From sequence record PZ379180.1: a DNA stretch of 44,016 nucleotides. One strand, 5' to 3'. The position numbers were made by a program, and so were the translations under genes. Numbering within the stretch: position 1 is the stretch's first letter; the number at the start of each line of letters is the position of its first letter. Origin of the DNA: a phage. Shown in pieces: positions 3,219 through 40,413 of the stretch. Under the pieces are notes generated by a model. The model was not told the origin of the DNA, did no database searches, and saw only the letters and a program-made list of their open reading frames with translations.

Positions 3219-4046
3219 ATGTTAACTATGAACGGTCAGAATCAGGGTGTTAAGACAAAACACCGGGAATGGCTGCATCACTTCGATAAATGGCAGAAGG
3301 TACGCCACGCTCTTGAAGGCGACCTTATCCGCTATCTGCGTAACGTCGGGAAGAACGAGCCTGACCAGACCTACGCAGCACAGCGACAGGAAGAATACGA
3401 GAACGGCGCTATCTGCTACAATTTCACCAAACGCACGCTGGCGGGGATGACGGGGTCAGTGATGCGCAAAGACCCTGAGCAGATTATCCCGCCTGAACTT
3501 GAGTACCTGTTGCACAACGCGGACGGTTCAGGTGTCGGGCTGTGGCAGCACGCGCAGGATACGCTGATGGAGATTAACTCGATAGGCCGTGGCGGGTTGC
3601 TGGTGGACGCCCCGGAAACAGCCGCAGCAACGGCGGCAGAGCAGAACGCGGGATTATTAAACCCGGTAATCGCATTCTATACCGCGGAGAACATTATCAA
3701 CTGGAGACTCACCCGCATCGGTTCAGTGAACCGCGTGACGATGGTTGTATTGCGTGAGGCATGGGAATACTCGGAACCAGGCGCTGAGTTTGAAACAAAA
3801 TTCGGCGAGCAATACCGCGTCCTTGACCTGATTGACGGTCGCTACCGCCAGCGCATCTACCGCTTCGATGCCGAAGGTGGCGCACAGGATGAAGTAATCG
3901 AAATCTTCCCGGAACTCGGCGAACAGTTGCGCGGTAAAATCCCGTTCACGTTCATTGGCGCAAGCAACAACGACGCCACTATAGACGATGCGCCTTTACT
4001 GCCGTTAGCTGAGCTAAATATAGGACACTTCAGAAATTCGTACTGA
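3219..4046 (+). CDS. portal protein, N-terminal fragment (frame break near 4030-4046)
   Basis: Position after terL; 275 aa ORF ends at TGA 4044-4046 and the next frame continues from 4024. Confidence 0.7.
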   Translation: MLTMNGQNQGVKTKHREWLHHFDKWQKVRHALEGDLIRYLRNVGKNEPDQTYAAQRQEEYENGAICYNFTKRTLAGMTGSVMRKDPEQIIPPELEYLLHNADGSGVGLWQHAQDTLMEINSIGRGGLLVDAPETAAATAAEQNAGLLNPVIAFYTAENIINWRLTRIGSVNRVTMVVLREAWEYSEPGAEFETKFGEQYRVLDLIDGRYRQRIYRFDAEGGAQDEVIEIFPELGEQLRGKIPFTFIGASNNDATIDDAPLLPLAELNIGHFRNSY

Positions 4047-4047
4047 T

Positions 4048-4701
4048 GTGGAAGAGGCCAGCTTTATAGTAGGTCAACCGACACTGTTCATTGCCCCCGG
4101 CGAGAACATGAGCATGGAGCAGTGGAAAGAAGCCAACCCACACGGCATACGCATGGGGTCGCGTTCAGGCCACAACATCGGCTCCGGCGGAAATGCGTTT
4201 CTGGTTCAGGCGGCGGAAACTAACCTCGCCAAACAGAACATGCTGGATAAAGAGAATCAGGCCATCCAGATTGGCGCGCAGCTTATCACCCCGACGCAGC
4301 AAATCACCGCGGAATCGGCCCGCCTGCAACGCGGCGCCGACACGTCAGTCATGGCAACAATAGCACGTAATGTAAGCATGGCGTATACCGATGCGTTGCG
4401 CTGGGTTGCGGGTATGCTTGGGCTTAGTGAAGATACTGAGATTGAGTTCAAGCTGAATATGGAATTCTTCCTGCAACCGATGACCGCTCAGGACCGCGCT
4501 CAGTGGATGGCGGATATTAACGCTGGCCTGCTACCCGCCACCGCTTACTATGCTGCGTTGCGCAAGGCAGGTGTGACTGACTGGACAGATGAGGACATTC
4601 AGAACGCTATTGAAGACGCACCTCTGCCGTTGGGTTCTGTTGCTCAGGTAGCGGGAGAGATTCCGCAGTCGGCGCAGCAACAGGACACCACTCAGCAGTA
4701 A
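4048..4701 (+). CDS. portal protein, C-terminal fragment
   Basis: 217 aa ORF in +1 frame starting 1 nt after the upstream stop; frame open from 4024. Confidence 0.65.
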   Translation: MEEASFIVGQPTLFIAPGENMSMEQWKEANPHGIRMGSRSGHNIGSGGNAFLVQAAETNLAKQNMLDKENQAIQIGAQLITPTQQITAESARLQRGADTSVMATIARNVSMAYTDALRWVAGMLGLSEDTEIEFKLNMEFFLQPMTAQDRAQWMADINAGLLPATAYYAALRKAGVTDWTDEDIQNAIEDAPLPLGSVAQVAGEIPQSAQQQDTTQQ

Positions 4702-4711
4702 GTTCACCTAT

Positions 4712-4734
4712 AGCCCCGAAAGGGGCTTTCTTAT
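4712..4734 (+). terminator. possible intrinsic terminator
   Basis: AGCCCC-gaaa-GGGGCT hairpin followed by TTCTTAT. Confidence 0.4.
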
Positions 4735-4737
4735 AGT

Positions 4738-5814
4738 ATGCTATTAACTTTAGCGCCACAGGGTTTATCTATGAGCTTACTTACATCCCTAATCAGCCAT
4801 CAGATATGGCTGCAACGCACCGCATCCGGTGAAGTGAAAGACCTCACGCCGTTCATTCAGGAGATAAGGGATGAAATCAAACGGCAGGTGCTGTTATTCG
4901 GTGACGACGGTCGCAGCACTGCGCGACTGAATAAACTGTTACGCGACCTGGAAGAAGCACTAACCGGTATTACGGGTGACTGGCAAACAAAGCTAACAGA
5001 CGACCTTAAGGAACTGGCGGCGTACGAGGCTGAGTGGAACGTAAAGACACTGACCGCCAACGTAGACGCGGAATTTGTTACGCCTACCGCTGAGCAGGTA
5101 TGGGCCGCTGCCGAGTTTCAACCATTATCATTGAGCGACAAGCCCGTTGATTTCACCAAGCTGATGTCTGGATGGGGCGAAACGGAAGTAGCACGTCTTG
5201 TAACTGGAGTTAAGATGGGCTTTGTGCAAGGTCAAACCACACGGCAGATTGTTAAGAATGTTGTTGGCGCTGGTGGACTAGCCGACATCTCAGAACGTAA
5301 CGCGACTACGGTAATCCGCACCGCGCTGTCCCACGTATCCAACGAGGCCCGTAACGAGACGTACCGCCAGAACGACGACATCATCGAGAAATATGAGTGG
5401 GTGTCAACTTTGGACAGCCGTACCAGCACGATTTGCAGGGCCAGAGACGGAATGACGTGGGAAATCGGTAAAGGTCCGATGCCACCAGCCCATCCTAATT
5501 GCCGAAGTACCACTGCACCGGTAATCAGTTCAGAGTTCGACTTCCTTGATAAAGGCGCAAAACGCGCGGCTAAAGGCGCGGAAGGTGGCACTCAGGTAAG
5601 CGCAGACACCACTTACTACGAGTTCCTTAAACAACAACCGGCGTGGTTTCAGGACCAGGCGCTCGGCCCGGTGCGAGGTAAGATTTTCCGTAACAGCGGT
5701 ATATCGCCGGAAGAGTTTCGCGTAATATCTGTAGATGGTTTCGGGAATCCGCTCACGCTTAAGCAGATGGCGGAACTCGATAAACGTGTTGCTGATTATC
5801 TGAAAGGGGAATAA
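4738..5814 (+). CDS. head morphogenesis protein (Mu gpF / SPP1 gp7-like)
   Basis: 358 aa, position after portal, composition typical of minor head proteins. Confidence 0.65.
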   Translation: MLLTLAPQGLSMSLLTSLISHQIWLQRTASGEVKDLTPFIQEIRDEIKRQVLLFGDDGRSTARLNKLLRDLEEALTGITGDWQTKLTDDLKELAAYEAEWNVKTLTANVDAEFVTPTAEQVWAAAEFQPLSLSDKPVDFTKLMSGWGETEVARLVTGVKMGFVQGQTTRQIVKNVVGAGGLADISERNATTVIRTALSHVSNEARNETYRQNDDIIEKYEWVSTLDSRTSTICRARDGMTWEIGKGPMPPAHPNCRSTTAPVISSEFDFLDKGAKRAAKGAEGGTQVSADTTYYEFLKQQPAWFQDQALGPVRGKIFRNSGISPEEFRVISVDGFGNPLTLKQMAELDKRVADYLKGE

Positions 5815-6275
5815 TGATGGGCTTTTTCAAAGTAACTGACGTACCGTCTCGTCGCGTAGTCCAGTACGCCCGCGTGTCTGGCTCTGGCGAGAACGTGGTA
5901 TTTATTGGGGACGAAAGTGTACTCGGTACACCGGTAGATGATATGCCGTTTGCAGATAAAACCGGTATTGCGTTGCCCGCCGCCGGTATGCTTTATGAAA
6001 TTCCGTATCTGGCGGACGCTGGCGACGTGTATTTCTCTGCGCAACCGCAGGACGCTGAACTGGCGGGCGGCAGCGCAACCATCACTGTCGAGGTTAAGGC
6101 AGGCAAAGCGCCGTATTCTCTGACCTGGTACAAAGACGGTAAGGAAGTGGTGAATGCGCCTGAGGAGGCTCTGTCTCTGACGGTTAATGCGGTCGGCGAA
6201 TACTTCGTTAAAGTTACTGATGCCGATGGGGTAGAGGCGGTAAGCAAAGCGGCGAAGGTTACTAAGCCAGAATGA
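5814..6275 (+). CDS. Ig-like domain protein
   Basis: C-terminal segment APYSLTWYKDGKEV...GEYFVKVTDADG resembles Ig-like fold; motif shared with ORF 10544..10894. Confidence 0.5.
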   Translation: MMGFFKVTDVPSRRVVQYARVSGSGENVVFIGDESVLGTPVDDMPFADKTGIALPAAGMLYEIPYLADAGDVYFSAQPQDAELAGGSATITVEVKAGKAPYSLTWYKDGKEVVNAPEEALSLTVNAVGEYFVKVTDADGVEAVSKAAKVTKPE

Positions 6276-6278
6276 TAA

Positions 6279-6299
6279 AAGGCCCCGTTATGGGGCCTT
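6279..6299 (-). terminator. intrinsic terminator (minus-strand T-run)
   Basis: AAGGCCCC-gttat-GGGGCCTT hairpin; on the minus strand followed by TTTTATCATT. Confidence 0.55.
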
Positions 6300-6302
6300 A
6301 GC

Positions 6303-6596
6303 CTACTTTCCTGCCTCATGCGCAATTCGCGCCTCAGCGATAGAAAGATATTCCGAATCCATCTCAATTCCTATAAAGCGGAAACCTTCGCGCATGGCTG
6401 CTTTACCGGTGCTGCCACTCCCCATAAACGGGTCGAGAACCACTCCACCTGGTGGCGTCACAAGGCGGCAAAGGTACGCCATGAGGTCGGTTGGCTTGAC
6501 GGTGGGATGATTATTGGCCTCTCCTCTGTCCTTGCGGCTCGTTTTAGCGCAGTAGAAGAACCGGGCGGCGCTCTTGTCTGTCTCTACGCGCGGCAC
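6303..6596 (-). CDS. DNA N6-adenine methyltransferase, C-terminal fragment
   Basis: FFYCAK, HPTVKP and DPFMGSGST motifs; its frame is open upstream to about 6752 and reads VPANLIHDGSDEV. Confidence 0.8.
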   Translation of the reverse strand: MPRVETDKSAARFFYCAKTSRKDRGEANNHPTVKPTDLMAYLCRLVTPPGGVVLDPFMGSGSTGKAAMREGFRFIGIEMDSEYLSIAEARIAHEAGK

Positions 6597-7465
6597 ATAC
6601 TGCTTACCGTTGTCACTGGTGGCGCCGTAGCAGTTAGCCCGCGAGCGCTGGCTATCATCGCTTTTTCCCTGCTGACCTTTGGCTTCAGGGAAAGCGGTAA
6701 TAACCTCATCGCTTCCGTCATGAATAAGATTGGCTGGTACCAGCGTCCCAATTCATTGCCAGATTGAGGGCCACATGCGTAGGTTGATTCACTTTTTGCG
6801 GCGTGAAGCTGTCCGCCTTTGATGTTGTCTTTATAAGGTGTTCTTCTGGCCCAAACATCCCCCACCACCCGACACCCATCAATATTAATCGCACCTGTCC
6901 CCCACTCCAGCACGTTAGCCGCGACCGTACCTTTGAACGGCTTGCGGGCTACGGTGATTGGCTCAAGTGCTGGTTTGAGTGCGGTGCCCCAGCCGTTCCA
7001 CTGGCGGGCGGATTCGGTGGCGGGGGAGGCGATGTCAAGCCCTTTGCCGTACTCGCCATAGACGCCACCCGTCGTTGCGGTTGCCTCGCTGCGCCCCACC
7101 ACTTCACGCTCTGCGCCTGCCGCCTTGTCGATAGCCTTGCTCACATCCATACTTTTCGGAAAACCACTACCATATACCCATGCAATCATGTCACGAATCT
7201 CAAAACCAGCGTCCTCAATCCGCACAGCCATGCGGTGCTGGGTGCGAGTGCCTGCGAAGGCCAGTAGGTGACCACCTGGCTTCAGGACACGCAGGCATTC
7301 CTCCCAGATTGCCTGTTCTGGCACATCGTAATCCCACTTTTTACCCATAAACGACAGGCCATAAGGCGGGTCGGTGACTATGCTATCTACGGAATTGTCG
7401 GGAATACCCTTTAATACCTCAAGGCAATTCCCTAGATGAATATTGTATGGTTTAGTATAAGCCAT
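6584..7465 (-). CDS. DNA N6-adenine methyltransferase, N-terminal fragment
   Basis: DPPY motif near N-terminus, GTGAINIDGCRV, GRW; last 50 residues of the ORF are out-of-frame read-through; AGGAGG RBS. Confidence 0.85.
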   Translation of the reverse strand: MAYTKPYNIHLGNCLEVLKGIPDNSVDSIVTDPPYGLSFMGKKWDYDVPEQAIWEECLRVLKPGGHLLAFAGTRTQHRMAVRIEDAGFEIRDMIAWVYGSGFPKSMDVSKAIDKAAGAEREVVGRSEATATTGGVYGEYGKGLDIASPATESARQWNGWGTALKPALEPITVARKPFKGTVAANVLEWGTGAINIDGCRVVGDVWARRTPYKDNIKGGQLHAAKSESTYACGPQSGNELGRWYQPILFMTEAMRLLPLSLKPKVSREKAMIASARGLTATAPPVTTVSSMCRA

Positions 7466-12243: not shown

Positions 12244-12470
12244 TGAGCACCGCTTTCAGTAAACGTATGCAAGGCGTGGGTACACGCCTGCTAACCAAAT
12301 TCGGCAGCACGGTATCTCTGGTTCGTGCTGGCTCGAAAGTGTGGGATGAAGTTCTCGGTGAGTACGTCTGGTCTGCGGATGAAGTGTTGCCGTTGAAAGC
12401 GGTTCCGGTTCCGGTTAATGCTGGACTGGTAAACGGTTCGACGATTCAGGCGTACCGACATGATTGTTAA
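12243..12470 (+). CDS. head-tail adaptor, N-terminal fragment
   Basis: ATG 12243 (ATGA overlap); frame breaks near 12440-12467. Confidence 0.45.
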   Translation: MSTAFSKRMQGVGTRLLTKFGSTVSLVRAGSKVWDEVLGEYVWSADEVLPLKAVPVPVNAGLVNGSTIQAYRHDC

Positions 12471-15160: not shown

Positions 15161-15648
15161 TATTTATCGCTCCCGTGTGGTTTTAAGTGTGTAGAGTTCC
15201 CGTTACAGTCGTATTCGGTAACTGCGTGTGCGGTTATGCCGAGGTCACGGAAATGCTTTATTACCGCTGGAGAGTCGTCGAACGCACACAAGATTCTTTC
15301 CAGTCCGAAAGCACGCAACACCTCTTCTTTAATTACGATGTCTTTTCTGTTGTCGTGTTTGCTGCGCATGATTAGCGTGTCAAACCTAACGTTATTCTCT
15401 CGTAACCATTCGCGAGTCTCCTCCTCAGCGTCATCACTTCGCCCGGTAAGGATAATTATAGTAAGTCCGGAATGCCACAGTACGCTACACAAATGGATAT
15501 TGTCGTATATCGGAGCGTCATCTTTGCAGGCCATGTTAAATGGCTTCCACGCCCACGTTTCTCCGTAGTTATCTTTTGGTAACAGGTGTAAGCGATGGGT
15601 ACCGTCTACCAATGTCCCGTCTAAATCGAAAATTACAATATCTTTCAT
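15160..15648 (-). CDS. HAD-family phosphatase
   Basis: N-terminal FDLDGTLVD motif (DxDGT); start overlaps upstream gene stop. Confidence 0.6.
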   Translation of the reverse strand: MKDIVIFDLDGTLVDGTHRLHLLPKDNYGETWAWKPFNMACKDDAPIYDNIHLCSVLWHSGLTIIILTGRSDDAEEETREWLRENNVRFDTLIMRSKHDNRKDIVIKEEVLRAFGLERILCAFDDSPAVIKHFRDLGITAHAVTEYDCNGNSTHLKPHGSDK

Positions 15649-17183: not shown

Positions 17184-17600
17184 ATGAAACTTTCTGATTT
17201 TTATTACGAAGCGGAAGCCGAAAAGGGCGCACGTATGCCGATACCGCTAAAAGACGGTACTGATTCCGGGGAATGGCTTAATGTTGTTTCTCCTGAGGCG
17301 GACGTTGCCGTTAAGGCTATGCGCGCGTTCACCCTTGCATACCGGGCAGTATTAGGGAAATTAAAACCGCTTCGTGATAAGTGCGAAGAGATGAAAGATT
17401 TCTCTGAATACAACCTGAAGATGGAAGACGCGGCGACGGACCTTAACCGTCAGTTAGCGATTGAATTGGTTAACGGGTGGAGCCTTGACGACGAATTCAA
17501 TAAAGAGAATCTGAACACACTCCTGACGCAATATAAACGACTCGCGGAACTTGTTGTTGTGTTTCATAACGAACAACTGCACCAGCTACAGGAAAAGTAG
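17184..17600 (+). CDS. tail assembly chaperone (G-like)
   Basis: 138 aa acidic ORF immediately upstream of tape measure gene; -1 frame open 17570-17767. Confidence 0.5.
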   Translation: MKLSDFYYEAEAEKGARMPIPLKDGTDSGEWLNVVSPEADVAVKAMRAFTLAYRAVLGKLKPLRDKCEEMKDFSEYNLKMEDAATDLNRQLAIELVNGWSLDDEFNKENLNTLLTQYKRLAELVVVFHNEQLHQLQEK

Positions 17601-17748: not shown

Positions 17749-17964
17749 ATGCCCCCTGAGCTACTAACCACATTTGAGAAGTACAGGGAAATTAAATTCA
17801 CCCGCCGAGTGGACGACGACGGCATCAAGATGTACCCGCGCGAGCAATTACGATGGTCAGATTTAGTGGCGTACAGCACCGTTTCAGGCCAGAATATAGG
17901 GATGTTCGAATCCGACATCATCATGAGCTTAGACGCTATTTTCGAGGGTAGAAACGATGGCTGA
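17749..17964 (+). CDS. hypothetical protein, possibly distal part of chaperone frameshift extension
   Basis: 71 aa ORF overlapping tape measure start; frame open from 17683. Confidence 0.3.
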   Translation: MPPELLTTFEKYREIKFTRRVDDDGIKMYPREQLRWSDLVAYSTVSGQNIGMFESDIIMSLDAIFEGRNDG

Positions 17965-19036
17965 TGTAGCTAGTTTAGTAGTAAAAGTAACAGAGCAAGG
18001 CGCGAAAGCCACATCAGACCGTCTTGACAACCTTTCAAAGTCCGCAAAAGTAGCGGGGGCCGCCGTAGCAGGCCTTGCTTCTATCGTAGCGGCTACCGCG
18101 TATAAAGCTGCCCAAGAACTGGTTGACTCACAGCGGCAACTGGACAAGATGTCCGCCAGTTTGAAGACCTTAACAGGAAGTACCCAAGGTGCTAAACAGG
18201 CGCTAAGTATCCTGCAAGATTTTGCCCGCGATACCCCATACGGACTGGAGCAGGCGGTGGAAGGCTTCCGTAAGCTGGTGGCCCTTGGCCTTACCCCATC
18301 CGAGGAGGCGTTGCGGTCCTACGGCAATACCGCATCGGCTATGGGCAAGGACCTTAATCAGATGATTGAGGCGGTAGCCGACGCCAGTACGTTTGAGTTC
18401 GAACGCCTAAAAGAATTCGGCATCAAAGCCAAGCAGAACAAAAACGACGTAGAGTTTACATTCCAGGGGACAACAACCGTAGTTAAGAAAAGCGCTGCCG
18501 ATATTGAGCAGTATTTACTTAATATTGGTAACGTAAATTTTGCCGGTGCCATGGCGGACCAGGCCAACACCCTTAATGGCGCTATCGCGAGCGCCAGTGA
18601 CTCATGGTCGCAGCTAAAAATGACGCTTGCCACCAGTCTTGATGTTGGCGCACTTGCGGAACCTATCAGGTATATCAATGACTTGATCCAGGAATTAAAT
18701 GCGTCTGTTGCTTCCGGTGAATTAGCCGCTGAAATGCAGATGTGGGGGAACATCGCGTCGGAAGTAGGAAGCGCTATCGAGATGTCATTCGACGCTGCGT
18801 TTGGCTTTGTTGGCGATGCCATCAACGGGCTTAATGAACTGTGGGATTTCAGCAGCAAGAGTATTACGGATAGCGGAGAACAAACGGCTACTACCATCGC
18901 TGAATCCACCGCCGATGCGCTTGACTTCATCGCGGAAGAGTTCACCGCGATGGAGAGATTCTTTGAAGATATGGTTAAAGGCGCGCAGGACGCGGGCCGT
19001 CTTGTACGAGCCGCTTTTACCCCAGGGAATCAGTAG
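17957..19036 (+). CDS. tape measure protein, fragment 1
   Basis: Ala/Gln-rich helical 359 aa ORF after chaperone; frame breaks between 18979 and 19036. Confidence 0.75.
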   Translation: MADVASLVVKVTEQGAKATSDRLDNLSKSAKVAGAAVAGLASIVAATAYKAAQELVDSQRQLDKMSASLKTLTGSTQGAKQALSILQDFARDTPYGLEQAVEGFRKLVALGLTPSEEALRSYGNTASAMGKDLNQMIEAVADASTFEFERLKEFGIKAKQNKNDVEFTFQGTTTVVKKSAADIEQYLLNIGNVNFAGAMADQANTLNGAIASASDSWSQLKMTLATSLDVGALAEPIRYINDLIQELNASVASGELAAEMQMWGNIASEVGSAIEMSFDAAFGFVGDAINGLNELWDFSSKSITDSGEQTATTIAESTADALDFIAEEFTAMERFFEDMVKGAQDAGRLVRAAFTPGNQ

Positions 19037-19074: not shown

Positions 19075-19371
19075 TTGGATACCCAGCGCGATGTCGCCGA
19101 CGTTACGCGTAAAAGTTTCCGCGAACAGGTAGAAGCTCAACAGGATATTGTAGCGTTAAAACGCGCGGCGTATGACATCGATAAGGAGTCCGCAAAAGCT
19201 GAGGGGTTAAACAAATTTAAGGTAACCGGAACTGGCGGCGGTTCTGACGATGACGGGTCAGCCGCAAAAGCTGCTAAGAAAGCGGCGGACGCGTTCGAGC
19301 GCCAGAAAAAGCGGCGGAAGACTTCTACTATCAGTCAATCCATCTTAATGATGACGTATTTCAGAAAATAG
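19075..19371 (+). CDS. tape measure protein, fragment 2
   Basis: -1 frame open from 18979 to 19371; breaks at A5 run 19306-19310. Confidence 0.6.
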   Translation: MDTQRDVADVTRKSFREQVEAQQDIVALKRAAYDIDKESAKAEGLNKFKVTGTGGGSDDDGSAAKAAKKAADAFERQKKRRKTSTISQSILMMTYFRK

Positions 19372-19400: not shown

Positions 19401-20294
19401 TTGCAGGATTTTTATAGCAATAAGCTTCTTAGCGACCAACAGTACGAAAACGCCAAGACGCAGATTATGCTCTCTGCCGAACAGGCCCGCCAGGAAGAAC
19501 TGGACAAGAAAAGGAAAGAAGCCCAGGAGAAGCAGCAGAAAGGTGATGATTTCATGGCTCAGATTATGGGCCAGAACGCCACCGAGCTTGAGCTTCTGGA
19601 TATTCAGGAACAGCAGAAACTGGCGGTAGCCGATAAGTACCAGGAACAAGGTCTGATTAGCGAGAAGCAGTATCAGGCCGCGCTTAACGCCATCAACGAG
19701 CAGTACGCAACCAAGCGTGCCGACGCAACGGCAACAGCTTTCGGTAACATGGCTTCAAACATCGGGTCTGCGTTGGGCGAGGCTTCTGGTGCGTACAAGG
19801 CATTCGCTATCGTACAGGCCACTATAGCCACGTACACCGCAGCTATCGAGGCGTACAAGTCAACGGCTGCTATCCCTGTAGTCGGTCCGTTCCTGGCCCC
19901 AGTAGCCGCTGCTGCTGCTGTTGGGGCCGGTATGGCGCAGATTTCCGCTATCAGGTCAGCACGTGAACAGGGTGGACAGTTATCCGCCGGGCAGGCTTCC
20001 ACCATCGCCGAACGCGGTAAACCTGAGGTAATTATGCCGGCGGGGGCGTCGCGAGTACGCACCGCGCAACAAATGAAAGAGATTATGGGCCAAAACGGGT
20101 CTTCTTCCGGCCCATCTAATGTTACTATCGTAAACAACACGAGTTCGCAAATCGGCAACGTATCCACCGAGCAGGATGATGAAGGCCGTCTGCGTATCAT
20201 CATAGAAGAGCAAGTTGCTGCATCTTTGCAGAACAGCAACAGTAAGATTAGCAAGGCCCGCAAGGCCACAAGAAACGCGCCGGGGTTTAAATAA
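19401..20294 (+). CDS. tape measure protein, fragment 3
   Basis: Frame open from 19278; Q/E-rich coiled coil and hydrophobic AAIPVVGPFLAPVAAAAAVGAG segment. Confidence 0.7.
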   Translation: MQDFYSNKLLSDQQYENAKTQIMLSAEQARQEELDKKRKEAQEKQQKGDDFMAQIMGQNATELELLDIQEQQKLAVADKYQEQGLISEKQYQAALNAINEQYATKRADATATAFGNMASNIGSALGEASGAYKAFAIVQATIATYTAAIEAYKSTAAIPVVGPFLAPVAAAAAVGAGMAQISAIRSAREQGGQLSAGQASTIAERGKPEVIMPAGASRVRTAQQMKEIMGQNGSSSGPSNVTIVNNTSSQIGNVSTEQDDEGRLRIIIEEQVAASLQNSNSKISKARKATRNAPGFK

Positions 20295-27052: not shown

Positions 27053-28473
27053 TTCTTACCTCGTCTCTTCATGTAATTAAGCAACTCTTCCTGTACCGAT
27101 TTCTTCTCGTCAGTACGTGTGGCAACAACCTCGTCCAGCGTGTCTTTAGCGACGATGTGATAGAGGAACACCGGTCGCTCGTGCCCCGCTTGTTTCTGGC
27201 GGACCGGGCCTATACGCTCAACAACCTGCAAATAGTGCTCAAGGTTCCAGCCTTGCGAGATGAACGCCAGATGATGACCCCCGTCCTGTAAATTCAAACC
27301 ATGCCCGGCTGACGCAGGATGCACGCATAAAATCTCGATTTCCCCACGGTTCCACGCTTCCATCTGCTTGTTACCCTTAGCCCCTTTGGCGAATGCCTGG
27401 GCCTGCGGGAATCGCTTAAGGATGCGCTCCAGTTCGTGCTTGAACTGATAAGCCACCAGCAACGGCGCGCCCTGTAACTCCTCGACAATAGACTCCAGCG
27501 CATCCAGTTTCGTGTCGTGCACTTTCTCCCATTCTTTGGTTGCTTCGCCGTCTTCGCCCGTCACATACACGGCACCGGATGCAATCTGCAAGCACTTTGA
27601 GGTCTTCGCCGCAGCGTTAGCCGCTTCAACTTCCCCGCTCTCCAGTTCTGCGAATAACTTCTCCTCCATATCTATGTACGCCTGACGTGCTTTCTTCGGC
27701 AGGTCGATTTCAACCGGCACGATAACAGGCGCTTCACAACCGAACCACTCGGCGGCGTCAATCGTCAGACTGATGTCCTTCATCTTCTGGTGAATCTCGT
27801 TATCTGCACCAGGGCGGGCGTGATATTCACGTGCCATCGCAGATTTTCCTTTCTGTACCGAATTAAACCAGCGGTCGGTGAATGCTGTATACGACGAACC
27901 TAGGCGCTCGCCAGCGTCGATAAACCAGTTCTGGCCCCACAAATCCTTGAGGCCGTTTGGTGACGGTGTACCAGTCAGGTTAATAAAACGCTTAACCCTT
28001 CCGAAAGCCACTTTACTAAGCGCCTTTGCACGCTTGCTACCACCTGAACGGCTGCGGAATGATTTAAGCTTCGTGCTTTCATCTGCAACGATAACCGTAA
28101 AAGGCCAGTCGTCTTTGCCGTAGTAGTCAATCAGCCACTCGATAACCTCATAGTTCGTGCAAACCACGTTAGCATCTGACTCCAGCGCCGCGATGCGGCG
28201 CTTCTCTGAACCAGTCGCATCTACAACACGCAGACATGGGAATTGCCATTTCTCTTGCTCTGCAGGCCACGTACCAGACGCAACCCGCAGCGGGGCGAGG
28301 ATTAACACGCGGTCGTCATCATTAAGTTGGTAGTTTCGGAACAGTCGGTTTAATGCCCACAGTACGCTGCCAGTCTTCCCAGCGCCCATGCTTGCCCATA
28401 TGTTGCAGCGATGGTGCCGCAGCATGAACGAAGTCATGAGCTTTTGGTACTCACGCCTTTGAAACTTACTCAT
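27049..28473 (-). CDS. SNF2-family DNA helicase
   Basis: Walker A GAGKTG, DEST box (VIVADESTKLKS), LTGTP, C-terminal helicase motifs. Confidence 0.85.
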   Translation of the reverse strand: MSKFQRREYQKLMTSFMLRHHRCNIWASMGAGKTGSVLWALNRLFRNYQLNDDDRVLILAPLRVASGTWPAEQEKWQFPCLRVVDATGSEKRRIAALESDANVVCTNYEVIEWLIDYYGKDDWPFTVIVADESTKLKSFRSRSGGSKRAKALSKVAFGRVKRFINLTGTPSPNGLKDLWGQNWFIDAGERLGSSYTAFTDRWFNSVQKGKSAMAREYHARPGADNEIHQKMKDISLTIDAAEWFGCEAPVIVPVEIDLPKKARQAYIDMEEKLFAELESGEVEAANAAAKTSKCLQIASGAVYVTGEDGEATKEWEKVHDTKLDALESIVEELQGAPLLVAYQFKHELERILKRFPQAQAFAKGAKGNKQMEAWNRGEIEILCVHPASAGHGLNLQDGGHHLAFISQGWNLEHYLQVVERIGPVRQKQAGHERPVFLYHIVAKDTLDEVVATRTDEKKSVQEELLNYMKRRGKK

Positions 28474-29395
28474 TTACCGCCCCCATGAATGCCTTTATAA
28501 ATTCAGCAGCTACTTGCGGGACGATGGCATTGCCGTAACCGCGCAATCGTCCCACTCTGGCGGGTATCCCATCAGCCAGCGGGAATGTGCCGGGTTCAAC
28601 TGGCCTGAATTTTCCATCCCGGCATCCGAGCCAGTCTGCCTCTGACCAGAAGCCGTGATGCGGATTGGTCGCGATATTTTCAGTCCCTGCTCCGTTGAGT
28701 AGTCCAGCCTGTCGAAAGTCCGGTCCTTTCCGTCCTTGCGAATCACTGTCTCTCCGCTCCCTCTGTAATCGTTCGCGGTCGGCGTCGCCCATGCCGTCAT
28801 CGCGGCGGCCCACCCCAGTTTGTTCGGTTTCGTCCTGCCGTCTGTGCTGCGCATGTTCACGTCGTTTGTTATCAGTGATACTGCTGGCGTGGGCCAATCT
28901 ATGCGCGCCGAAGAAAAGTCGGTCGCGTTTGTGCGGTGCGCCGACGCTACAAGCTGGGAGTACGGCAAACCCGACGGCGTAGTTTTCTCCTTCCAGGTGA
29001 GTTTGTAAATCGCACATCCACGATTTTGCAATTGCTGGCGCAACCTGCTCCCCAAAGAGGACTGGAGGGCGGCACTCGCTGATGAGGTCGAGGAACACAG
29101 GTGCGAGGTGTCTCGGGTCGAACTGTCCGAGTTGCTTTCCCGCTGCGCTAAACGGTTGGCAAGGCGGGCTTCCCGTCCAGAGAGGCGCATCTTCCGGAAC
29201 TCCCGCAAGTCTGAGCGCGAGAGGCCAGCCGCCGATACCAGCGAAAAAATGACACTGGGTGAATCCGTCGAGGTCTTCTGGCTTAACTTCAGTAATGCTT
29301 CTTTCATCTACAACTCCAAAAGGTATGTGACCCTGTTTTATTAATTCACGCAGCCACGCGGCTGCGCCTTTATCCCATTCGTTGTAATAGTTCAT
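28466..29395 (-). CDS. DNA C5-cytosine methyltransferase (central third apparently out of frame)
   Basis: Motif I FAGIGGW, motif IV GSPPCQPFSAAG, motif VIII APHKRDRLFFGA, motif X GNAIVPQV in this frame; TRD and motif IX lie in overlapping frame 28510..29307. Confidence 0.75.
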   Translation of the reverse strand: MNYYNEWDKGAAAWLRELIKQGHIPFGVVDERSITEVKPEDLDGFTQCHFFAGIGGWPLALRLAGVPEDAPLWTGSPPCQPFSAAGKQLGQFDPRHLAPVFLDLISECRPPVLFGEQVAPAIAKSWMCDLQTHLEGENYAVGFAVLPACSVGAPHKRDRLFFGAHRLAHASSITDNKRREHAQHRRQDETEQTGVGRRDDGMGDADRERLQRERRDSDSQGRKGPDFRQAGLLNGAGTENIATNPHHGFWSEADWLGCRDGKFRPVEPGTFPLADGIPARVGRLRGYGNAIVPQVAAEFIKAFMGAVNE

Positions 29396-30114: not shown

Positions 30115-31492
30115 ATCGCTTCATCTCCGCACCTTCAGCTACAAGAGGGAACCCCTCCGCCCATTCCGGCAATTCGCACATCAACCGCTCAAGCTCTGCT
30201 ACATTGTATTCCGGTGAATCTGGTGTCTCGCAGATAATCTCATCGTGTACGTGAAGTACAATCGGGTAGCCGTTTGCTTCTACGTTCAGCAGGGCATTAG
30301 CCAGCAAATCACGGCACAATGCCTGAGTGCAGTTTTCCACCAGTTTACCCGAGTAGGTGTACTGGAACCCCCACTGACGGGTTAGCTGATTTTCGCCCTG
30401 GTACTTAATGCGCACGTTAGTAGACACCTTCCCGTCTCCATCTGTTTCTTTCGACACGCTCAACCCGACGCCCGGATAAGACATAACGCGACCCGACGGC
30501 AACGTCATGCGCAACCACCAACCAGCGACTTTGTTGCCGTTGTTGTCCGTTTCTACGTTACGCGAAAACTTAACACCCCGCGGTCCCGCAGTGAACTCTT
30601 TACCTGGATTGCGGATAGCCGCCATAGCCGCGTCTTCAATATCACGCCAGAAAGCTACTGTTTCCGGGTGTGACTCACGCCACATGCGCTTGATAGCGTC
30701 GCAGGTACGCCACACTTTCTTATCAAGAATATACGATGGTCGGTCATCCTTTTCACCTGGCCGCGGAGGTCGCTTGGCTTCCTGAATACGTGCCCATTCA
30801 TAGCCGCGTGCAGTAGCGGCCCATATATGGTTGGGGAATGTCCCGTCCATTGTTTTTGCCATATCAACCAGGTTTAAGCCGAGGTTCTTAGCAAACTGAA
30901 CGAAAGCACCGACACCACCAGCATAGCCAAGGCCCAATTCACATGCTTTACCTATCTGGCGTAGGTCACTACGGCTTTCGAGAATGTAATCAGGGTCCAT
31001 GCCGAACATCTTACCCGCGGTTACACAGTAAATATCCAATCCCGCACGGAAGGTATCGAGAGCGGTTTCTTCTCCCGCCAGCCATGCCAACCCGCGACCT
31101 TCAACGTTAGAGTAATCAGCTACGACAAACTTACGCCCGGCTTCCGGTATGATGCAGCTACGCACCGTCGATGCCGTTAGCTTGGCTACATCGAAACGGC
31201 GATGCGCGCGGCCTTTAAACAACAGGTCGATTCCGTAGGACAATGGGTGTGTTACCCTCCACCAGTCCTTCTCTGACATCCAGTCATAACGTACTTTCTT
31301 CTTTTTATTCTTCGGGTCGTCATGATAGTACCCGCGCGCCAGGTTCTGTGGCTGGAAGCCTTTACCCGCGAACCGTAACGTACGCTTTGCCCCACCGTAC
31401 TGGATACAACCGCGGCGTCGGTCGTCCGACGAGCGGCCTAACAGCAGCGGGTTATATTTCGTGGACGCTGTTGACGCGGCCCCGAGGCGCAT
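30104..31492 (-). CDS. DNA polymerase family A, polymerase-domain fragment
   Basis: Motif A VADYSNVEGRGLAWLAG, motif B RQIGKACELGLGYAGG, motif C LHVHDEIICE. Confidence 0.85.
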   Translation of the reverse strand: MRLGAASTASTKYNPLLLGRSSDDRRRGCIQYGGAKRTLRFAGKGFQPQNLARGYYHDDPKNKKKKVRYDWMSEKDWWRVTHPLSYGIDLLFKGRAHRRFDVAKLTASTVRSCIIPEAGRKFVVADYSNVEGRGLAWLAGEETALDTFRAGLDIYCVTAGKMFGMDPDYILESRSDLRQIGKACELGLGYAGGVGAFVQFAKNLGLNLVDMAKTMDGTFPNHIWAATARGYEWARIQEAKRPPRPGEKDDRPSYILDKKVWRTCDAIKRMWRESHPETVAFWRDIEDAAMAAIRNPGKEFTAGPRGVKFSRNVETDNNGNKVAGWWLRMTLPSGRVMSYPGVGLSVSKETDGDGKVSTNVRIKYQGENQLTRQWGFQYTYSGKLVENCTQALCRDLLANALLNVEANGYPIVLHVHDEIICETPDSPEYNVAELERLMCELPEWAEGFPLVAEGAEMKRYAK

Positions 31493-32370
31493 TTCGATAA
31501 TCGTGCGGGCGTCGTCAGGTAAATCATCATCGGTACCAGCAGGTCATTCAGCGTCGACTTCTGTGCGTTGTGTATGCGGTGTGCGGGGGCCAGTTCACGT
31601 AGAATAGGCAGAAAGTCCTTACCGGTAAGCGAGCCGCCGTATTTACGTTGAGCTTCTTCCTGTAACTGTGCCTTGTGCTTCTCTACGGCTTCAATCGCGG
31701 CTTCCGCCAGTGCGACGTCAACCTTAAATCCGCGGTCGTTGATTAACTGGTCAAGTTCCAGTACACGGTCTTCGAACTCGGAGTTACCCCAACGCGGCAG
31801 CTTATGGAAGACTTCACGCATCGCAGTGATGTCGCTCACGGCGTACCTGATGAACATCGCCCACTCGTCAGGGTGAGTTTCTGCGGTGTAGCGGCGGATT
31901 TTGTAGTTCTTCGGCGTCGGTTTAGAGAAACGCTTAATCAGAGCCTTGCCGCGTTTATCTTTCGCGTTGTCTGCAGACACGCCCAGCACTTCGCACAGCG
32001 CATCAAGAGAACCCGGCAGCGCGTGACGGAACGCCCAAATCATAGTATCAATGGTGTTACTTACCGGAATATCAAAGCCCCAGCAGTGTTTCATGATTAG
32101 GCGATCGAAAAGTCCACCGTTGTGCCATACCATCTTAATGCGACTGTTTGGCTTAACCAGACGGCGTAGAGCGCGGTGTAAATCCACGGGCATATCACTG
32201 CCGTCGGTGCAATCCCATACCTGTACAGGCTCGTCGTCAAAAGCGTAGGTACAGATAAGCACTTCGGTAGTTGGATGCTCGGCGTAAGCATAGGAGCCGA
32301 CTTTCTTCAAATCGGCTTCGGAGAATGTTTCAAAGTCTAAGTAAAGCAATGTGTTCATAGTCTGTACCAC
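31438..32370 (-). CDS. DNA polymerase family A, 3'-5' exonuclease-domain fragment
   Basis: Exo I motif LYLDFETFS; ORF overlaps the polymerase fragment by 55 nt in another frame. Confidence 0.8.
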   Translation of the reverse strand: MVQTMNTLLYLDFETFSEADLKKVGSYAYAEHPTTEVLICTYAFDDEPVQVWDCTDGSDMPVDLHRALRRLVKPNSRIKMVWHNGGLFDRLIMKHCWGFDIPVSNTIDTMIWAFRHALPGSLDALCEVLGVSADNAKDKRGKALIKRFSKPTPKNYKIRRYTAETHPDEWAMFIRYAVSDITAMREVFHKLPRWGNSEFEDRVLELDQLINDRGFKVDVALAEAAIEAVEKHKAQLQEEAQRKYGGSLTGKDFLPILRELAPAHRIHNAQKSTLNDLLVPMMIYLTTPARLSKCASGPRQQRPRNITRCC

Positions 32371-33447: not shown

Positions 33448-33603
33448 TTAAGCATATTGGTACGGTTCGAACTCATCCTCTACAGGGTAGTATCGCATCA
33501 TGGTACCGTTCAAGAACGTGAACGATTCCGAGTGTAGATACCCATCCCAGTGCCATACCATCAAAAAATCTTTATCAGTCGGCATTTCATTTACTTGAAT
33601 CAT
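33448..33603 (-). CDS. hypothetical protein
   Basis: ATG at 33603 with AGGAGG RBS (track ORF 33448..33633). Confidence 0.35.
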   Translation of the reverse strand: MIQVNEMPTDKDFLMVWHWDGYLHSESFTFLNGTMMRYYPVEDEFEPYQYA

Positions 33604-34084: not shown

Positions 34085-34840
34085 TCAGGTTCTTTTACCC
34101 CGGAAATAGGCATCAAGAGCCAACAGCGCCCGTTTCTGTGCAAACTTAGCGAACAGTTCCAGACCTTCAACCGAGATGTCCCACTCCGATGCACCGCCAG
34201 CGTACGGCTGGAAGATGACCAGTCGAACGGTTGTTATGCTATAACGTCTCTTGAGTCGGCGATAAACGCCGAGAGCATAAAGCATAAGCTGCTTGTTTTC
34301 TTTCGCTTCGACACGATGCCGCCCGGTTTTCAGGTCGCAGATGATAAGCATGTGTTCGTCGGTGTTAGCCAGTTCCTGTATGGCAACAAGGTCAGCAGTT
34401 CCGAACGTCTCAACGCCTTCATACCCCGGATGCAATACCTCAGTAAGATTAACACGCATTTCCAGCTTGGCGTAAGTCGCTATATCGATAATCGCCTTGC
34501 AGTAGTCGGTGTACTTGCGCACCTGCTCAATCATGTCCGCCGTAATCAGTACCGCGCCTTTCATCGGGCTGATTAGTGCCTTAATCTGGCCTTTGCCTTC
34601 ATCCAGCACGTAAGCACCGACTTCACGCTCTAACGGCAGCGCAGTTCCGCGAATATAAGCGTTGAGATGGACCTCAGCTATGGTGTGCATTGCCGTGCCT
34701 AATACAGCGGCTTTACCTGACGTGTTAGGGGTATCTTTTTCACAGGCCAGTGATGCCGCGCAACTTAGCCACTTTTTAGCCCCTGACGGCGACAGTAAGG
34801 CATGTACATCGTTATTGCCGCCGCGTTCTTTAAGAATCAT
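34085..34840 (-). CDS. PD-(D/E)xK nuclease, Cas4/RecB-like (N-terminal part)
   Basis: ICDLKTG (D-x-K) and QLMLYALG (Q-x-x-x-Y) motifs; N-terminal Cys. Confidence 0.6.
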   Translation of the reverse strand: MILKERGGNNDVHALLSPSGAKKWLSCAASLACEKDTPNTSGKAAVLGTAMHTIAEVHLNAYIRGTALPLEREVGAYVLDEGKGQIKALISPMKGAVLITADMIEQVRKYTDYCKAIIDIATYAKLEMRVNLTEVLHPGYEGVETFGTADLVAIQELANTDEHMLIICDLKTGRHRVEAKENKQLMLYALGVYRRLKRRYSITTVRLVIFQPYAGGASEWDISVEGLELFAKFAQKRALLALDAYFRGKRT

Positions 34841-36307: not shown

Positions 36308-36371
36308 TGGGCTTTTCTAAAATAATTAATATGGTACTATTCACACATCAACTGACTAAGGAGTAATTGAC

Positions 36372-36587: not shown

Positions 36588-36603
36588 CGCCCCTTTCTTT
36601 TTA
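36577..36603 (+). terminator. intrinsic terminator
   Basis: AAGGGGC-ttgac-GCCCCTT hairpin followed by TCTTTTTA. Confidence 0.55.
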
Positions 36604-36798
36604 TTGCACCTTTATCGGGTATCTTTTGCGAAACTTACCTAACCCGCAGTACACGCTGTAAGCCTCTGTGTAACTGAACACAACATGATACCCGCGCCCA
36701 TAAGGAACTACGTTAAGAACTTCTACTACTTCGCCTCTGTGGTTGGTGTATTTATTACCTTTCAGTTCGTCGCTTACTTCTTTAAATTTACCGCTCAT
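36601..36798 (-). CDS. hypothetical protein
   Basis: 65 aa ORF coupled to primase gene (overlapping stop-start). Confidence 0.4.
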   Translation of the reverse strand: MSGKFKEVSDELKGNKYTNHRGEVVEVLNVVPYGRGYHVVFSYTEAYSVYCGLGKFRKRYPIKVQ

Positions 36799-39062
36799 TC
36801 CAAATCCTCCTCTGTCACTGTCAACATTTCATTCGGTTCGTATATTGTCTTTGGAATCTTGTTATCAGTTATTCTGGTGTTCAGCCTGTAACGACCTGGG
36901 ATTATCTGATTGTTTTCGTCAGTACCCGGAACAAGATACCCGGCCTCAACCATTTTCTTAATCTTCCCGCGTTCTATGGCTTCTTTGGAGTTAAACGCCT
37001 TTGCGTTTGGGTCTGACTGTGCGAGCTTATTCGCCGCGGCGACTGTGATGCCTTCGTTGCCGTTGTAGGTTCCTTCCGCCAGTTCAAACGCCGCGAGTAT
37101 CGTGGCCTCCGAACTGTTGACGGCGTTCTCTACGGTTTTACGTACATTTTCTTTACCTTCTTTCGTCAACCCTTCTTCCCGCTCTTTCTCCTCGTCAGTT
37201 TTGAACGGCTCGAAACCCCACGGCATCAACACAAGCGCCTTGTGTGGTTCAGGCAGGTCCAGGTTTACGATTGTGCCGTATTCCTCTGTGCTACCCAGGA
37301 ACTCAACCGCTCGGTATTCTTTAGGTGGCGGCGCTTCACGGAACTGTACCGACTCCAGCACCATGCCAACCGTCTTCTGCTGAGGCCCGTGCTTGAATTT
37401 CGAGTGATATACGTTTATCTGACGGTCGGTTGCACGTTCGATTGTCAGTTCCACATCAACACCCGCATACAGCGCCCCACTGCCGCGTGCTTTCTTTCCA
37501 CCCTTCGGCGTATGGTGGACAACGCCTACTGCGGCTTTAGTTGCATCGCGTACTTCTTTCAGAATGGCGATAACTTTACCCATGCCGATTGCTGTTGATG
37601 AACTGTTCTCGTCGAACTTATCAATCGTCAGTGCCAGGGTCTGGTTAAGGGTGTCGAACGCAACCATGCCAATTGGCTCGTCGCCAGCAGTTTCGCGCAT
37701 TAACTTAATCAGGCTTTTAAGTTTGCCGACTTCGCCCATATCGATGACATGTACATAATCTTTACCTTCCTCGCCGTATTTAGCCGCGAGCGCATCAATA
37801 CGTGTACGTGTGGCTGCCCCACCCTCGCCGTCGATATAGAAATGGTGACAACGCTGGGTGTCAGCCCCTGCAAACCGGTATCCGGCGGCGCTCAGGTACA
37901 TCATCCCCAGCGTATAGAATGATTTGTACGTGCCCGATTCTCCGACGATACCCCAGATACAATCCGACGGCATGTACCCCTCAACGACGAAATCAGCCTT
38001 TACCGGCTCCGGTAACTCGTCCTCCTCTGAGTCCTCGTCGTCTTCCAGGTCGTCGAGGCTGCATGAGACAGATTCACGCGCCCCCCAACCGATGGCCTCT
38101 GCGACTTCACTGAACGGCAGCCCGGTCGCATCGCACGCGTACTTCCACACCTCTTTCGGTGACAGGCCTTCTGTCGCCGTAATGTCTGTGTCGTGAATCA
38201 TGGTTACGTTTGGCGCTTCATACCCCTCGCGCGGGAAGCACAGCAGGAAGTCGTCCGGGCGCGGTGTCGGGTCGCTGTAGTTTTCGGCATGTTCCGGTGT
38301 GGCTGGCATCTTAAGGCCGCGCGGCGTCATGACGCCGCCGTACTCAAACGCCAGTGCTTCAAACGCGTCTGTAAACGCGGTGCGCAGTTCTTCCGGTATC
38401 TGGTAATCCGATGCGCTGCTAACGTCAACGGCTGGGATGCCTTCCAGTAACTCGTTCGGGTCGATCAGGTCGTTGCGGCGCGACCAGATAACGGTAGCGC
38501 CGACCGGCGGCAGGTACATCGGCTGCGACAGAGTGAACCCGCTGCGGTCCGCACCCATGCCTTTGAAGAAGTGCTCCAGCAACCCATGACGAACACGGAT
38601 GATATCACCACCCTCAACTGGGCGGGCCAGCGGCATGACGACGCGAAAGCGAGGCGACTCATCGGTATGTGATGCCGTGGTGTAGAGACACATCGCCCGG
38701 CGGCTGCGATTAACCAGGCGCACCGCTTCCTGGTACTCTTCCGGTGTTGCACTGTCGAAGTCCAGATACGCCAGCGACGATTTGCTCACAGACGCATCGC
38801 AGCGATAAAAGAAACCTTTACGCGCCTGCTTAAAGTCTCCAGTTTCCGGGTCTTTTACGGTGCTGTGCGTAGAGTCGCACGCGGCTGTGATGTAGCCAGG
38901 GGCTGTCTTCGGGTTAATCCCGTCACGAATGGCATCGAGCGGCTGAATTAACTCTTTCAGGTCGTCCAGTGTTGCCGTGTGTGTGGTTCTGACGTTTATA
39001 TCCTTTTTCTCTGCCCGCGCGTTGCGACGTGACCACGAGTAGGATAAAATTACATCGGACAT
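36795..39062 (-). CDS. DNA primase-polymerase / helicase (PrimPol-like N-domain plus RecA-like ATPase)
   Basis: LDFDS catalytic-like motif in N-domain, Walker A GESGTYKS, Walker B-like VAFDTL; 755 aa; C-terminus TEEDLE. Confidence 0.7.
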   Translation of the reverse strand: MSDVILSYSWSRRNARAEKKDINVRTTHTATLDDLKELIQPLDAIRDGINPKTAPGYITAACDSTHSTVKDPETGDFKQARKGFFYRCDASVSKSSLAYLDFDSATPEEYQEAVRLVNRSRRAMCLYTTASHTDESPRFRVVMPLARPVEGGDIIRVRHGLLEHFFKGMGADRSGFTLSQPMYLPPVGATVIWSRRNDLIDPNELLEGIPAVDVSSASDYQIPEELRTAFTDAFEALAFEYGGVMTPRGLKMPATPEHAENYSDPTPRPDDFLLCFPREGYEAPNVTMIHDTDITATEGLSPKEVWKYACDATGLPFSEVAEAIGWGARESVSCSLDDLEDDEDSEEDELPEPVKADFVVEGYMPSDCIWGIVGESGTYKSFYTLGMMYLSAAGYRFAGADTQRCHHFYIDGEGGAATRTRIDALAAKYGEEGKDYVHVIDMGEVGKLKSLIKLMRETAGDEPIGMVAFDTLNQTLALTIDKFDENSSSTAIGMGKVIAILKEVRDATKAAVGVVHHTPKGGKKARGSGALYAGVDVELTIERATDRQINVYHSKFKHGPQQKTVGMVLESVQFREAPPPKEYRAVEFLGSTEEYGTIVNLDLPEPHKALVLMPWGFEPFKTDEEKEREEGLTKEGKENVRKTVENAVNSSEATILAAFELAEGTYNGNEGITVAAANKLAQSDPNAKAFNSKEAIERGKIKKMVEAGYLVPGTDENNQIIPGRYRLNTRITDNKIPKTIYEPNEMLTVTEEDLE

Positions 39063-39119
39063 GTTGTATTTCCTTCAGCAAGTAATTTGGCCTCGGCGCT
39101 CTAACGTCGGGGCTTTCTT

Positions 39120-39553: not shown

Positions 39554-39769
39554 GTATACATTGCGAATAATGGGAAATCAAACATAATCGCACCTATTGA
39601 CATTATGAAAATATTCGTTTAAGGTGCTTCTATATCTTAGTTACTTTGATTCCTGTTCACCTTGTAATACCCGCTTGAAACGCAGCTGCGCCAAAGCGCA
39701 AGCGAAGTGTTAAGCGGCAGATTATTGAACATATGAATTATCGTAACTTTCCTTCCTTAGTATCTTAGG

Positions 39770-39782
39770 TTGCCGTGGGCAA
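39770..39782. repeat. 13-bp palindromic site TTGCCGTGGGCAA (copy 1)
   Basis: Inverted half-sites TTGCC/GGCAA; identical copy 71 bp downstream. Confidence 0.5.
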
Positions 39783-39840
39783 GCTCCATTCTCATCGGCA
39801 GCATATCTCTTAAATACCTGATAATTAAAAGTTTCTATAG

Positions 39841-39853
39841 TTGCCGTGGGCAA
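39841..39853. repeat. 13-bp palindromic site TTGCCGTGGGCAA (copy 2)
   Basis: Identical to copy 1, both preceded by TAG and followed by G; half-site TTGCCGTGG again at 40441-40449. Confidence 0.5.
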
Positions 39854-39877
39854 GGTAGAGAGTACTTCACTCCGCTG

Positions 39878-39897
39878 GGGTGGGCTAACGCCCACCC
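39878..39897. other. GC-rich hairpin
   Basis: GGGTGGGC-taac-GCCCACCC, no adjacent T-run. Confidence 0.35.
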
Positions 39898-39972
39898 ACT
39901 GCGTTGCGTACTCTTTTAAGAAACGAAAGAATCACAACGGCAACGTAACTATTCTCTTGCACACCCCAACAT

Positions 39973-39986
39973 AATAGGATACTATT
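39973..39986. promoter_or_regulatory. palindromic operator-like site AATAG-N4-CTATT
   Basis: Minus strand reads GAATAGtatcCTATTATGTTGGGG, near-identical to copy at 7491. Confidence 0.45.
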
Positions 39987-40020
39987 CACTTATCGAAACG
40001 AGACAGAGGAGTGAGGGTTA

Positions 40021-40196
40021 TGTTTAAGAAGGGTCAGTTGGTTAAAACTAAACGCGGAGGGCAATATGTATTAGTGTTGCAGGACGAGGATAATCTGGTT
40101 GACGTATGGGGTCTGGTAAGAAAGAAAACTGGGTTCGCCTCACGCGATAATTTAGAACTCATCGGCAACAATTTTAAATTCAAAGGGGCGAAGTGA
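40021..40196 (+). CDS. hypothetical protein
   Basis: ATG 40021 with GAGGAGTGAGGG RBS (track ORF starts 40011). Confidence 0.4.
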
Positions 40197-40413
40197 TGGA
40201 AGAATTAATTTGTATTGAATCCCGCCAGGATGTGCAGGATTGGTTTGTGAAAGGTAACAAATATTCGTCAGGAGTATATTACGACGGTACCGTCGATACG
40301 TTTTAGATGAAGACGGTGATGAATGGGATTTAGAGGACACTGCGGGCGAGACTTTAACCGTTAGTTTTCTTCAATGTTGTTTCCGCATCATTCACAACGG
40401 CATCGAATCATGA
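40196..40413 (+). pseudogene. hypothetical small gene with apparent frame break at T-run 40301-40304
   Basis: ATG 40196 frame stops at 40304-40306; -1 frame continues to TGA 40411-40413. Confidence 0.3.

Follow-up and report, generated by a model that had tools for sequence, protein, structure and literature searches.

Ten genes of the kagunavirus record PZ379180.1 are broken by probable sequencing errors concentrated at GGCC sites

Sequence record PZ379180.1 is a phage sequence of 44,016 nucleotides (nt), which we analysed over its full length and refer to as the window. It carries 11 small lesions that break the reading frames of ten genes (Table 1), and these breaks are almost certainly artefacts of the record rather than biology. 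The explanation we favour, with a probability of roughly 0.7, is that the record contains two classes of error, one left by base modification and the other by undercalled homopolymers, with the phage's own C5 methyltransferase (MTase) as the probable writer of the modification. Counting changes that leave the length of the sequence unaltered, the record is best explained as holding about 11 frame-breaking and at least five length-neutral errors.

Judged from its sequence, the window holds the complete genome of an E. coli phage belonging to Kagunavirus (Guernseyvirinae; K1G/Golestan group). Megablast gave 94–98% nucleotide identity across most of the window to Escherichia phages BEU33, BEU35, SHAK7858, Golestan, and phiEc4. 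The window spans the gene order of Golestan (NC_042084) from end to end, and we therefore read it as the whole genome, circularly permuted.

The interruptions of reading frame do exist in the sequence as given. Intact Golestan proteins were run against the window using tblastn, the N6-adenine MTase was judged with its homologue from BUCT618, and lesion positions were set by base-level alignment to four relatives. Single Golestan proteins aligned in two to three window frames, with 90–100% identity in the continuing frame, for the portal, the Neck1/tail-completion protein gp15, the tail-assembly chaperone T (TAC-T), the tape measure protein (TMP; three frames), the DNA polymerase, the PD-(D/E)XK exonuclease, and the hyp42-like and hyp73-like open reading frames (ORFs). 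Such continuation across frames is what the original prediction, a list of interrupted genes drawn from the letters of the sequence, had put forward as a check on itself. With all three lines of comparison, eight of the genes it named proved to be broken, and two more were added, the hyp42-like ORF and the hyp73-like ORF, the latter outside the range that the prediction covered. Its intervals contain or adjoin nine of the 11 lesions. The breaks in the portal, the N6 MTase, the TMP (both sites), the chaperone, and the exonuclease, which it had called a Cas4-like nuclease, could be located base by base, and the gene it had called a head-tail adaptor is the Neck1/tail-completion gene. Two further genes are broken as predicted but at other sites: the interval proposed for the DNA polymerase (31438–31492) is only an overlap of ORFs, with the lesion lying 42 nt beyond it, and the T-run proposed for a small ORF (40301–40304) is identical in relatives. 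Taking out the inserted TA just ahead of this run gives back a small ORF of 72 amino acids (aa). In the N6 MTase, read on the minus strand from 7465 to 6306, the frame shifts between 6740 and 6737, where the alignment to the BUCT618 homologue separates GRW from PANLIHDG; the ancestral TGGCCA was deduced from the Trp-Pro codons, and BUCT618, the sole DNA relative aligned here, has GGGCCA. Small indels at 39102, 26514, and 36299 were rejected as lesions of the window, as they either recur in some relatives or occur in BEU33 alone. At the position equivalent to 26514 BEU33 is one base short, an error in its own record.

Table 1. Lesions and related features of the window, with the change seen relative to related phages.
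Feature	Position	Strand	Change or content	Net change (nt)
Hyp73-like ORF (71–364), lesion	314	+	Additional T: GGCCCC in relatives, GGCTCCC here	+1
Length-neutral lesion	1300–1301	intergenic	GGCC to TACC	
Portal, lesion	4040–4044	+	CGGCCG (closest relative) to CGTACTG; GTACT for GGCC	+1
N6-adenine MTase, lesion	6738–6739	-	Inserted TA splits TGG/CCA (Trp-Pro); window TGGTACCA	+2
Neck1/tail-completion, lesion	12452–12456	+	CGGCCG (Golestan) to CGTACCG; GTACC for GGCC	+1
PNK, length-neutral lesion	15607–15608	-	CGGCCA to CTACCA, Ala13 to Val	
Candidate programmed -1 slip site	17592–17597	+	GAAAAG; last codons of chaperone G, T frame open from there	
TAC-T, lesion	17752–17756	+	C5 here, C6 in relatives	-1
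TMP, lesion 1	19019–19027, at 19024	+	CCCCCGGGG in closest relatives, CCCCAGGG here	-1
TMP, lesion 2	19306–19311, at 19311	+	Base lost at A5/G junction; window GAAAAAGCG	-1
Helicase, length-neutral lesion	28331–28332	-	TGGCCG to TGGTAG; Gly47, kept in 51/51 relatives, becomes Tyr	
C5 MTase frame A (alpha-like)	28466–29395	-	309 aa, intact; motifs I, IV, VI, VIII, then filler, then X	
Nested frame-B ORF (beta-like)	28510–29307	-	265 codons from first ATG; WPTP modules, WATPTANDYRGSG, QLNPAHSRWLMGYPPEW	
DNA polymerase, lesion	31534–31535	-	Inserted TA: CGGCCA (closest relatives) to CGGTACCA	+2
Hyp42-like ORF, lesion	33461–33462	-	TA replaces C: TGGCCG in relatives, TGGTACG here	+1
PD-(D/E)XK exonuclease, lesion	34093–34096	-	T4 here, T5 in closest relatives	-1
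Small ORF, lesion	40288–40289	+	Inserted TA: CGGCCG in relatives, CGGTACCG here	+2
Terminator, length-neutral lesion	43445	+	G to A within CGGCCC; disrupts CCCGGC/GCCGGG stem	

To examine how far the lesions are peculiar to this record, 73 further related loci from IMG/VR were added as independent relatives. The window's reading was found at any lesion in 0 of up to 52 of them (polymerase, n = 52; exonuclease, n = 49; helicase, n = 51; TAC-T and TMP, n = 17–20). All 52 relatives are without the two inserted polymerase bases, and the polymerase string bearing the lesion had no match in viral, metagenome, or genome contig collections. An exact look-up of the window's proteins in a collection of 15 billion proteins likewise gave no match. 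The exonuclease site is one base longer in 49/49 relatives, as is the chaperone T run in 17/17, which read C6 in 16 cases and TCCCCC, of equal length, in the 17th. Similarity to relatives is kept past the breaks, with downstream identity in the four largest genes of 93.3% (portal), 97.0% (exonuclease), 99.4% (TMP), and 99.8% (polymerase). Editing the 11 sites to the relatives' reading brought each of the ten genes back to a full-length alignment in one frame, among them portal 492/493, TMP 779/779, polymerase 750/750, and exonuclease 413/413. Since the lesions are private, similarity is undiminished beyond them, and repair is complete, they are best taken as errors in the record, in agreement with the original prediction, which had preferred indel errors to pseudogenes. 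Its advice to treat gene lengths and starts with caution was sound, and extends to single residues altered by the length-neutral errors in the helicase and PNK genes.

Where the prediction went astray was in placing the frame changes mostly at short homopolymers. Runs hold four of the 11 lesions and GGCC sites hold seven, and the probability of at least seven of 11 falling in GGCC by chance is 4e-11. Six of these seven lie where relatives have YGGCCR and the seventh, at 314, where they have CGGCCC. The forms seen in the window at GGCC sites are GGTACC, GTACC, GGTAC, GTACT, and GGCTCC, along with TACC and GGTA, and every motif-type lesion has T and/or A at the GGCC centre. The most-changed 5-mer is CGGCC (p = 2e-8). 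Length-neutral lesions of the TA type strike an invariant glycine of the helicase and disrupt the stem of a terminator. This is an intrinsic-terminator-like hairpin at 43436–43470, with a T-run after the GCCGGG arm that is 1–2 bases shorter than that of relatives.

Over the whole window YGGCCR occurs five times, compared to 14–17 times in Golestan, BEU33, and BEU35, and of the relatives' YGGCCR sites 3/21 are kept. Some of the losses (18885, 33869, 8724, and 38882) fall in flanks that have diverged and are ordinary synonymous changes, and the motif test was restricted to sites with flanks at least 98% identical. Within such flanks 7/9 YGGCCR sites were changed, compared to 6/103 other GGCC sites (Fisher p = 1.5e-6). 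Dcm sites (CCWGG) changed at background level only, with no excess. GTAC was considered as the error motif and rejected: the window keeps 154/176 GTAC sites of its relatives, and the lesions arose from ancestral GGCC, which makes GTAC their outcome and not their target. A change from CCSGG to CCWGG was likewise rejected as a second error class, as the roughly 15 sites are mostly synonymous (Pro-to-Pro) and were taken to be real divergence; of these changes, the one at 19024 alone belongs to a lesion. The window has 95 CCWGG and 76 CCSGG sites, compared to 72–80 and 87–100 in relatives (for example at 2679, 9164, 19640, 29774, and 40639), which looks like a real directional divergence, possibly restriction avoidance.

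Consensus sequences from native-DNA nanopore reads are known to have errors dominated by methylation motifs, with homopolymers second (Wick et al. 2019, PMC6591954), and modifications absent from base-caller training lead to recurrent errors within conserved motifs (Chiou et al. 2023, PMC10687267). Undercalled runs together with motif-specific errors match this documented profile, and for this reason we favour base modification and nanopore sequencing as the source of the lesions. The first class would consist of one-base undercalls in short runs (C6, T5, A5G2, and C5G4). The second would consist of the lesions at YGGCCR, plus two at CGGCCY, where the GGCC centre is read as TA or gains it. In the mechanism we propose, the inner cytosine of YGGCCR would be 5-methylated on both strands, and a base-caller working on native DNA would read methylated C as T, giving GGT... 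from forward reads and ...ACC from reverse reads. Consensus building or polishing would then merge the two strand readings at variable length, producing GGTACC and its shortened forms, and the likely writer of the mark would be the phage's own C5 MTase. On balance we lean towards a modification at YGGCCR as the cause of the motif lesions. False-positive flows on a flow-order platform (454 or Ion Torrent, TACG) were rejected as the source of TA, as they leave the replacements (GGCC to TACC and GGTA) and the motif specificity unexplained.

The C5 MTase gene was itself listed as interrupted in the original prediction. It is not; the ORF lies intact in one frame and its product is identical to Golestan gp34 over 309/309 aa. 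The two-frame signal reported there at approximately 28900 and 28545 is real and marks the points where recognisable sequence switches from frame A to frame B and back again, but it is no frame error, since a conserved ORF is nested in this region. Frame A carries FAGIGG, PPCQPFS, GEQV, and HKRDRLFF, then approximately 85 residues of low-complexity filler, then GNAIVPQVA, and is matched by Pfam PF00145 and TIGR00675 at motifs IV–VIII. Frame B, the nested +1 frame, is open for 220–318 codons in 12/12 phage homologues (62–82% identity), compared to 46–94 for the third frame, and in the middle third of the gene it is frame B that is conserved (57%) and not frame A (29%). A TTG start with an upstream, Shine-Dalgarno-like GGGGAG would give a frame-B product of 177 aa, and the same start is annotated in phage ST20. 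The frame-B product has approximately 2,400 protein homologues with invariant blocks, one of which, QLNPAHSRWLMGYPPEW, resembles motif IX by inspection. A copy in an E. coli lambdoid prophage (L081, 4878–6047) has the same nested layout at 42%/33% identity, and appears as two "incomplete" pieces in the PGAP annotation. Taken together, the nested gene is very probably real.

A gene of this layout is known. M.EcoHK31I from E. coli acts on YGGCCR, methylating the inner C, and has a beta chain, with motif IX, that is encoded wholly within the gene for the alpha chain, with motifs I–VIII and X, in another frame (PMC2836561). By analogy, the C5 MTase of the window probably belongs to the M.EcoHK31I type, as a conserved gene coding in two nested frames, and probably writes a YGGCCR mark. 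Names of homologues and PDB homologues were uninformative as to its specificity, and a Pfam scan of an A-B-A chimera brought no improvement over frame A alone. More broadly, we would give even odds to the proposal that kagunaviruses with this gene self-methylate YGGCCR through an M.EcoHK31I-type two-frame enzyme, that the TA lesions are its footprint, and that the family is a large one (thousands of phage and prophage copies) that is routinely mis-annotated. If true, the mis-annotation takes the form of one 309-aa protein whose middle third is meaningless, or of broken pseudogene pieces.

Several points weigh against this explanation. We infer the sequencing platform (nanopore), the methylation, and the specificity of the enzyme, and we came across no publication in which methylated GGCC is specifically miscalled through TA insertion. 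The window has the correct reading at three ancestral YGGCCR sites and contains two further sites of this motif, while two of the TA-type lesions are at CGGCCY, outside the strict motif. Across 67 related loci, presence of the C5 MTase showed no association with YGGCCR density (p = 0.12, in the wrong direction). Motif IX was detected in frame B by neither Pfam nor a PDB profile search, in which the frame-B family had no matches, and the AlphaFold model of frame B, with a predicted local distance difference test score (pLDDT) of 45, was too poor to use. The likeness to M.EcoHK31I draws on the published description of its layout rather than on a sequence alignment to its alpha and beta chains, and its target recognition domain (TRD) is placed in alpha (PMC2836561), whereas the TRD-like WPTP modules of the window are in frame B.

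Some of these points fit an alternative in which the errors are real but their motif specificity has another cause, either a host YGGCCR methyltransferase, as in an EcoHK31I/EaeI-type restriction-modification system, or a weakness of the chemistry or polisher for CGGCC-type k-mers without any modification. With no correlation between MTase and motif density among the 67 loci, a host-encoded methylase stays a live alternative. The lesions at CGGCCY and the correctly read YGGCCR sites also speak for this reading, as does the depletion of YGGCCR in E. coli kagunaviruses (observed/expected approximately 0.4–0.6) but not in distant relatives, which suggests that hosts restrict and methylate the motif. 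However, the phage's own C5 MTase has the rare nested layout described for the YGGCCR-specific M.EcoHK31I, and 97/103 other GGCC sites in identical flanks are correctly read, so GGCC k-mers themselves pose no problem. We consider this alternative unlikely, though not negligibly so. As a separate observation, among loci L007–L079 YGGCCR is scarce in E. coli kagunaviruses and near expectation in distant Salmonella-type relatives, with or without the C5 MTase.

Other error-laden records offer a further comparison. Many genes are split in CR01 and in M01. CR01 is a Kagunavirus record without this C5 MTase; TA-type lesions at YGGCCR are absent from it, and the clearest of its private indels are one-base losses within runs. 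M01 is likewise without the C5 MTase. This pattern fits base modification by the phage enzyme, as weak evidence.

It is very improbable that the lesions are genuine mutations in a defective, decaying phage or a prophage remnant with many pseudogenes. The sequence as given does have split portal, tape measure, polymerase, and nuclease genes, as such a remnant might. However, tblastn revealed no nonsense substitutions and no larger deletions in the broken genes, the only premature stops being those caused by the shifts, and protein identity stays at 90–100% past every break. Lesions that are each private among up to 52 relatives, that are limited to one motif and short runs, and that are all undone by eleven edits do not form a pattern expected of decay. 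Less probable still is decoding of the breaks through programmed ribosomal frameshifting or another form of recoding. The chaperone G/T junction does offer a plausible genuine -1 site, but relatives have unbroken ORFs at all 11 lesion sites, the +1, +2, and -1 shifts share no slippery sequence, and recoding sites are kept in relatives whereas the window's breaks are unique. Decay and recoding are excluded for practical purposes.

These results bear on how the record can be used. Annotated as it stands, it would show split portal, tape measure, polymerase, nuclease, and methyltransferase genes and a few wrong residues, none of which are biological, and a usable sequence is obtained from the 11 repairs. 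The errors are non-random, and mapping such errors against close relatives can expose a probable DNA modification without access to reads. The dual-frame C5 MTase gene occurs widely among enterobacterial phages and prophages, and is poorly handled by annotation pipelines. If YGGCCR is its specificity, this would point to a testable anti-restriction function and would explain why this record is damaged at that motif.

Other features of the genome were noted along the way. The N6-adenine MTase (6306–7465, minus strand) is an additional beta-class (DPPY) gene that sits, as an insertion, between the genes for head decoration and spanin. Golestan and SHAK7858 lack it, and the homologue in BUCT618, at 620 aa, contains a large insertion of its own. 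The helicase-primase (36795–39062; 755 aa) is intact and has only approximately 33% identity to that of Golestan while matching those of BEU33 and BEU35, which suggests that a replication module was replaced in mosaic fashion. The gene following the tape measure (20294–20794) encodes 166 aa in the window versus 465–472 aa in Golestan and SHAK7858. Approximately 930 nt of additional DNA after the tape measure is also found in BEU33 and BEU35, whose records are flagged UNVERIFIED and carry no annotation. This apparent deletion of approximately 930 nt 3′ of the tape measure was rejected as a lesion, being a common natural short allele with its junction spanned by 68 records including K1G. At 40083 an in-frame difference of 15 nt from three relatives lies within a small early gene. 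GATC is nearly missing from the window (8 observed versus approximately 156 expected) and CTAG is depleted (22 versus approximately 70), as they are in all four relatives.

Compared to its Kagunavirus relatives (Golestan NC_042084, BEU33/BEU35, SHAK7858, and K1G), the window has the same gene order but differs in its helicase-primase allele, its tailspike, its additional N6 MTase, and its short allele for the gene following the tape measure, and the relatives' ORFs are intact at 11/11 lesion sites, unlike those of the window. The chaperone region resembles the G/GT -1 frameshift of lambda-like siphophages, as the T frame lies -1 to G and opens at the GAAAAG that ends G, and this sequence may be a genuine programmed G/GT site; the C-run lesion at 17752 is separate from such a site and is an error inside T. 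Like published nanopore modification and homopolymer errors (PMC6591954, PMC10687267), those of the window are concentrated in one short motif and accompanied by run undercalls, outlast consensus and polishing, break ORFs, and can be corrected from close relatives. Most cases in the literature are substitutions at Dcm (CCWGG), GCWGC, or GCTGG sites, whereas the window has variable-length TA changes at YGGCCR on a platform that we infer. The C5 MTase is an orphan phage gene without an adjacent restriction enzyme, unlike M.EcoHK31I (PMC2836561). With that said, both would have a large product bearing motifs I–VIII plus X, together with a small product nested in another frame, and both share an E. 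coli context and the YGGCCR motif, which for the window is suggested by the error pattern.

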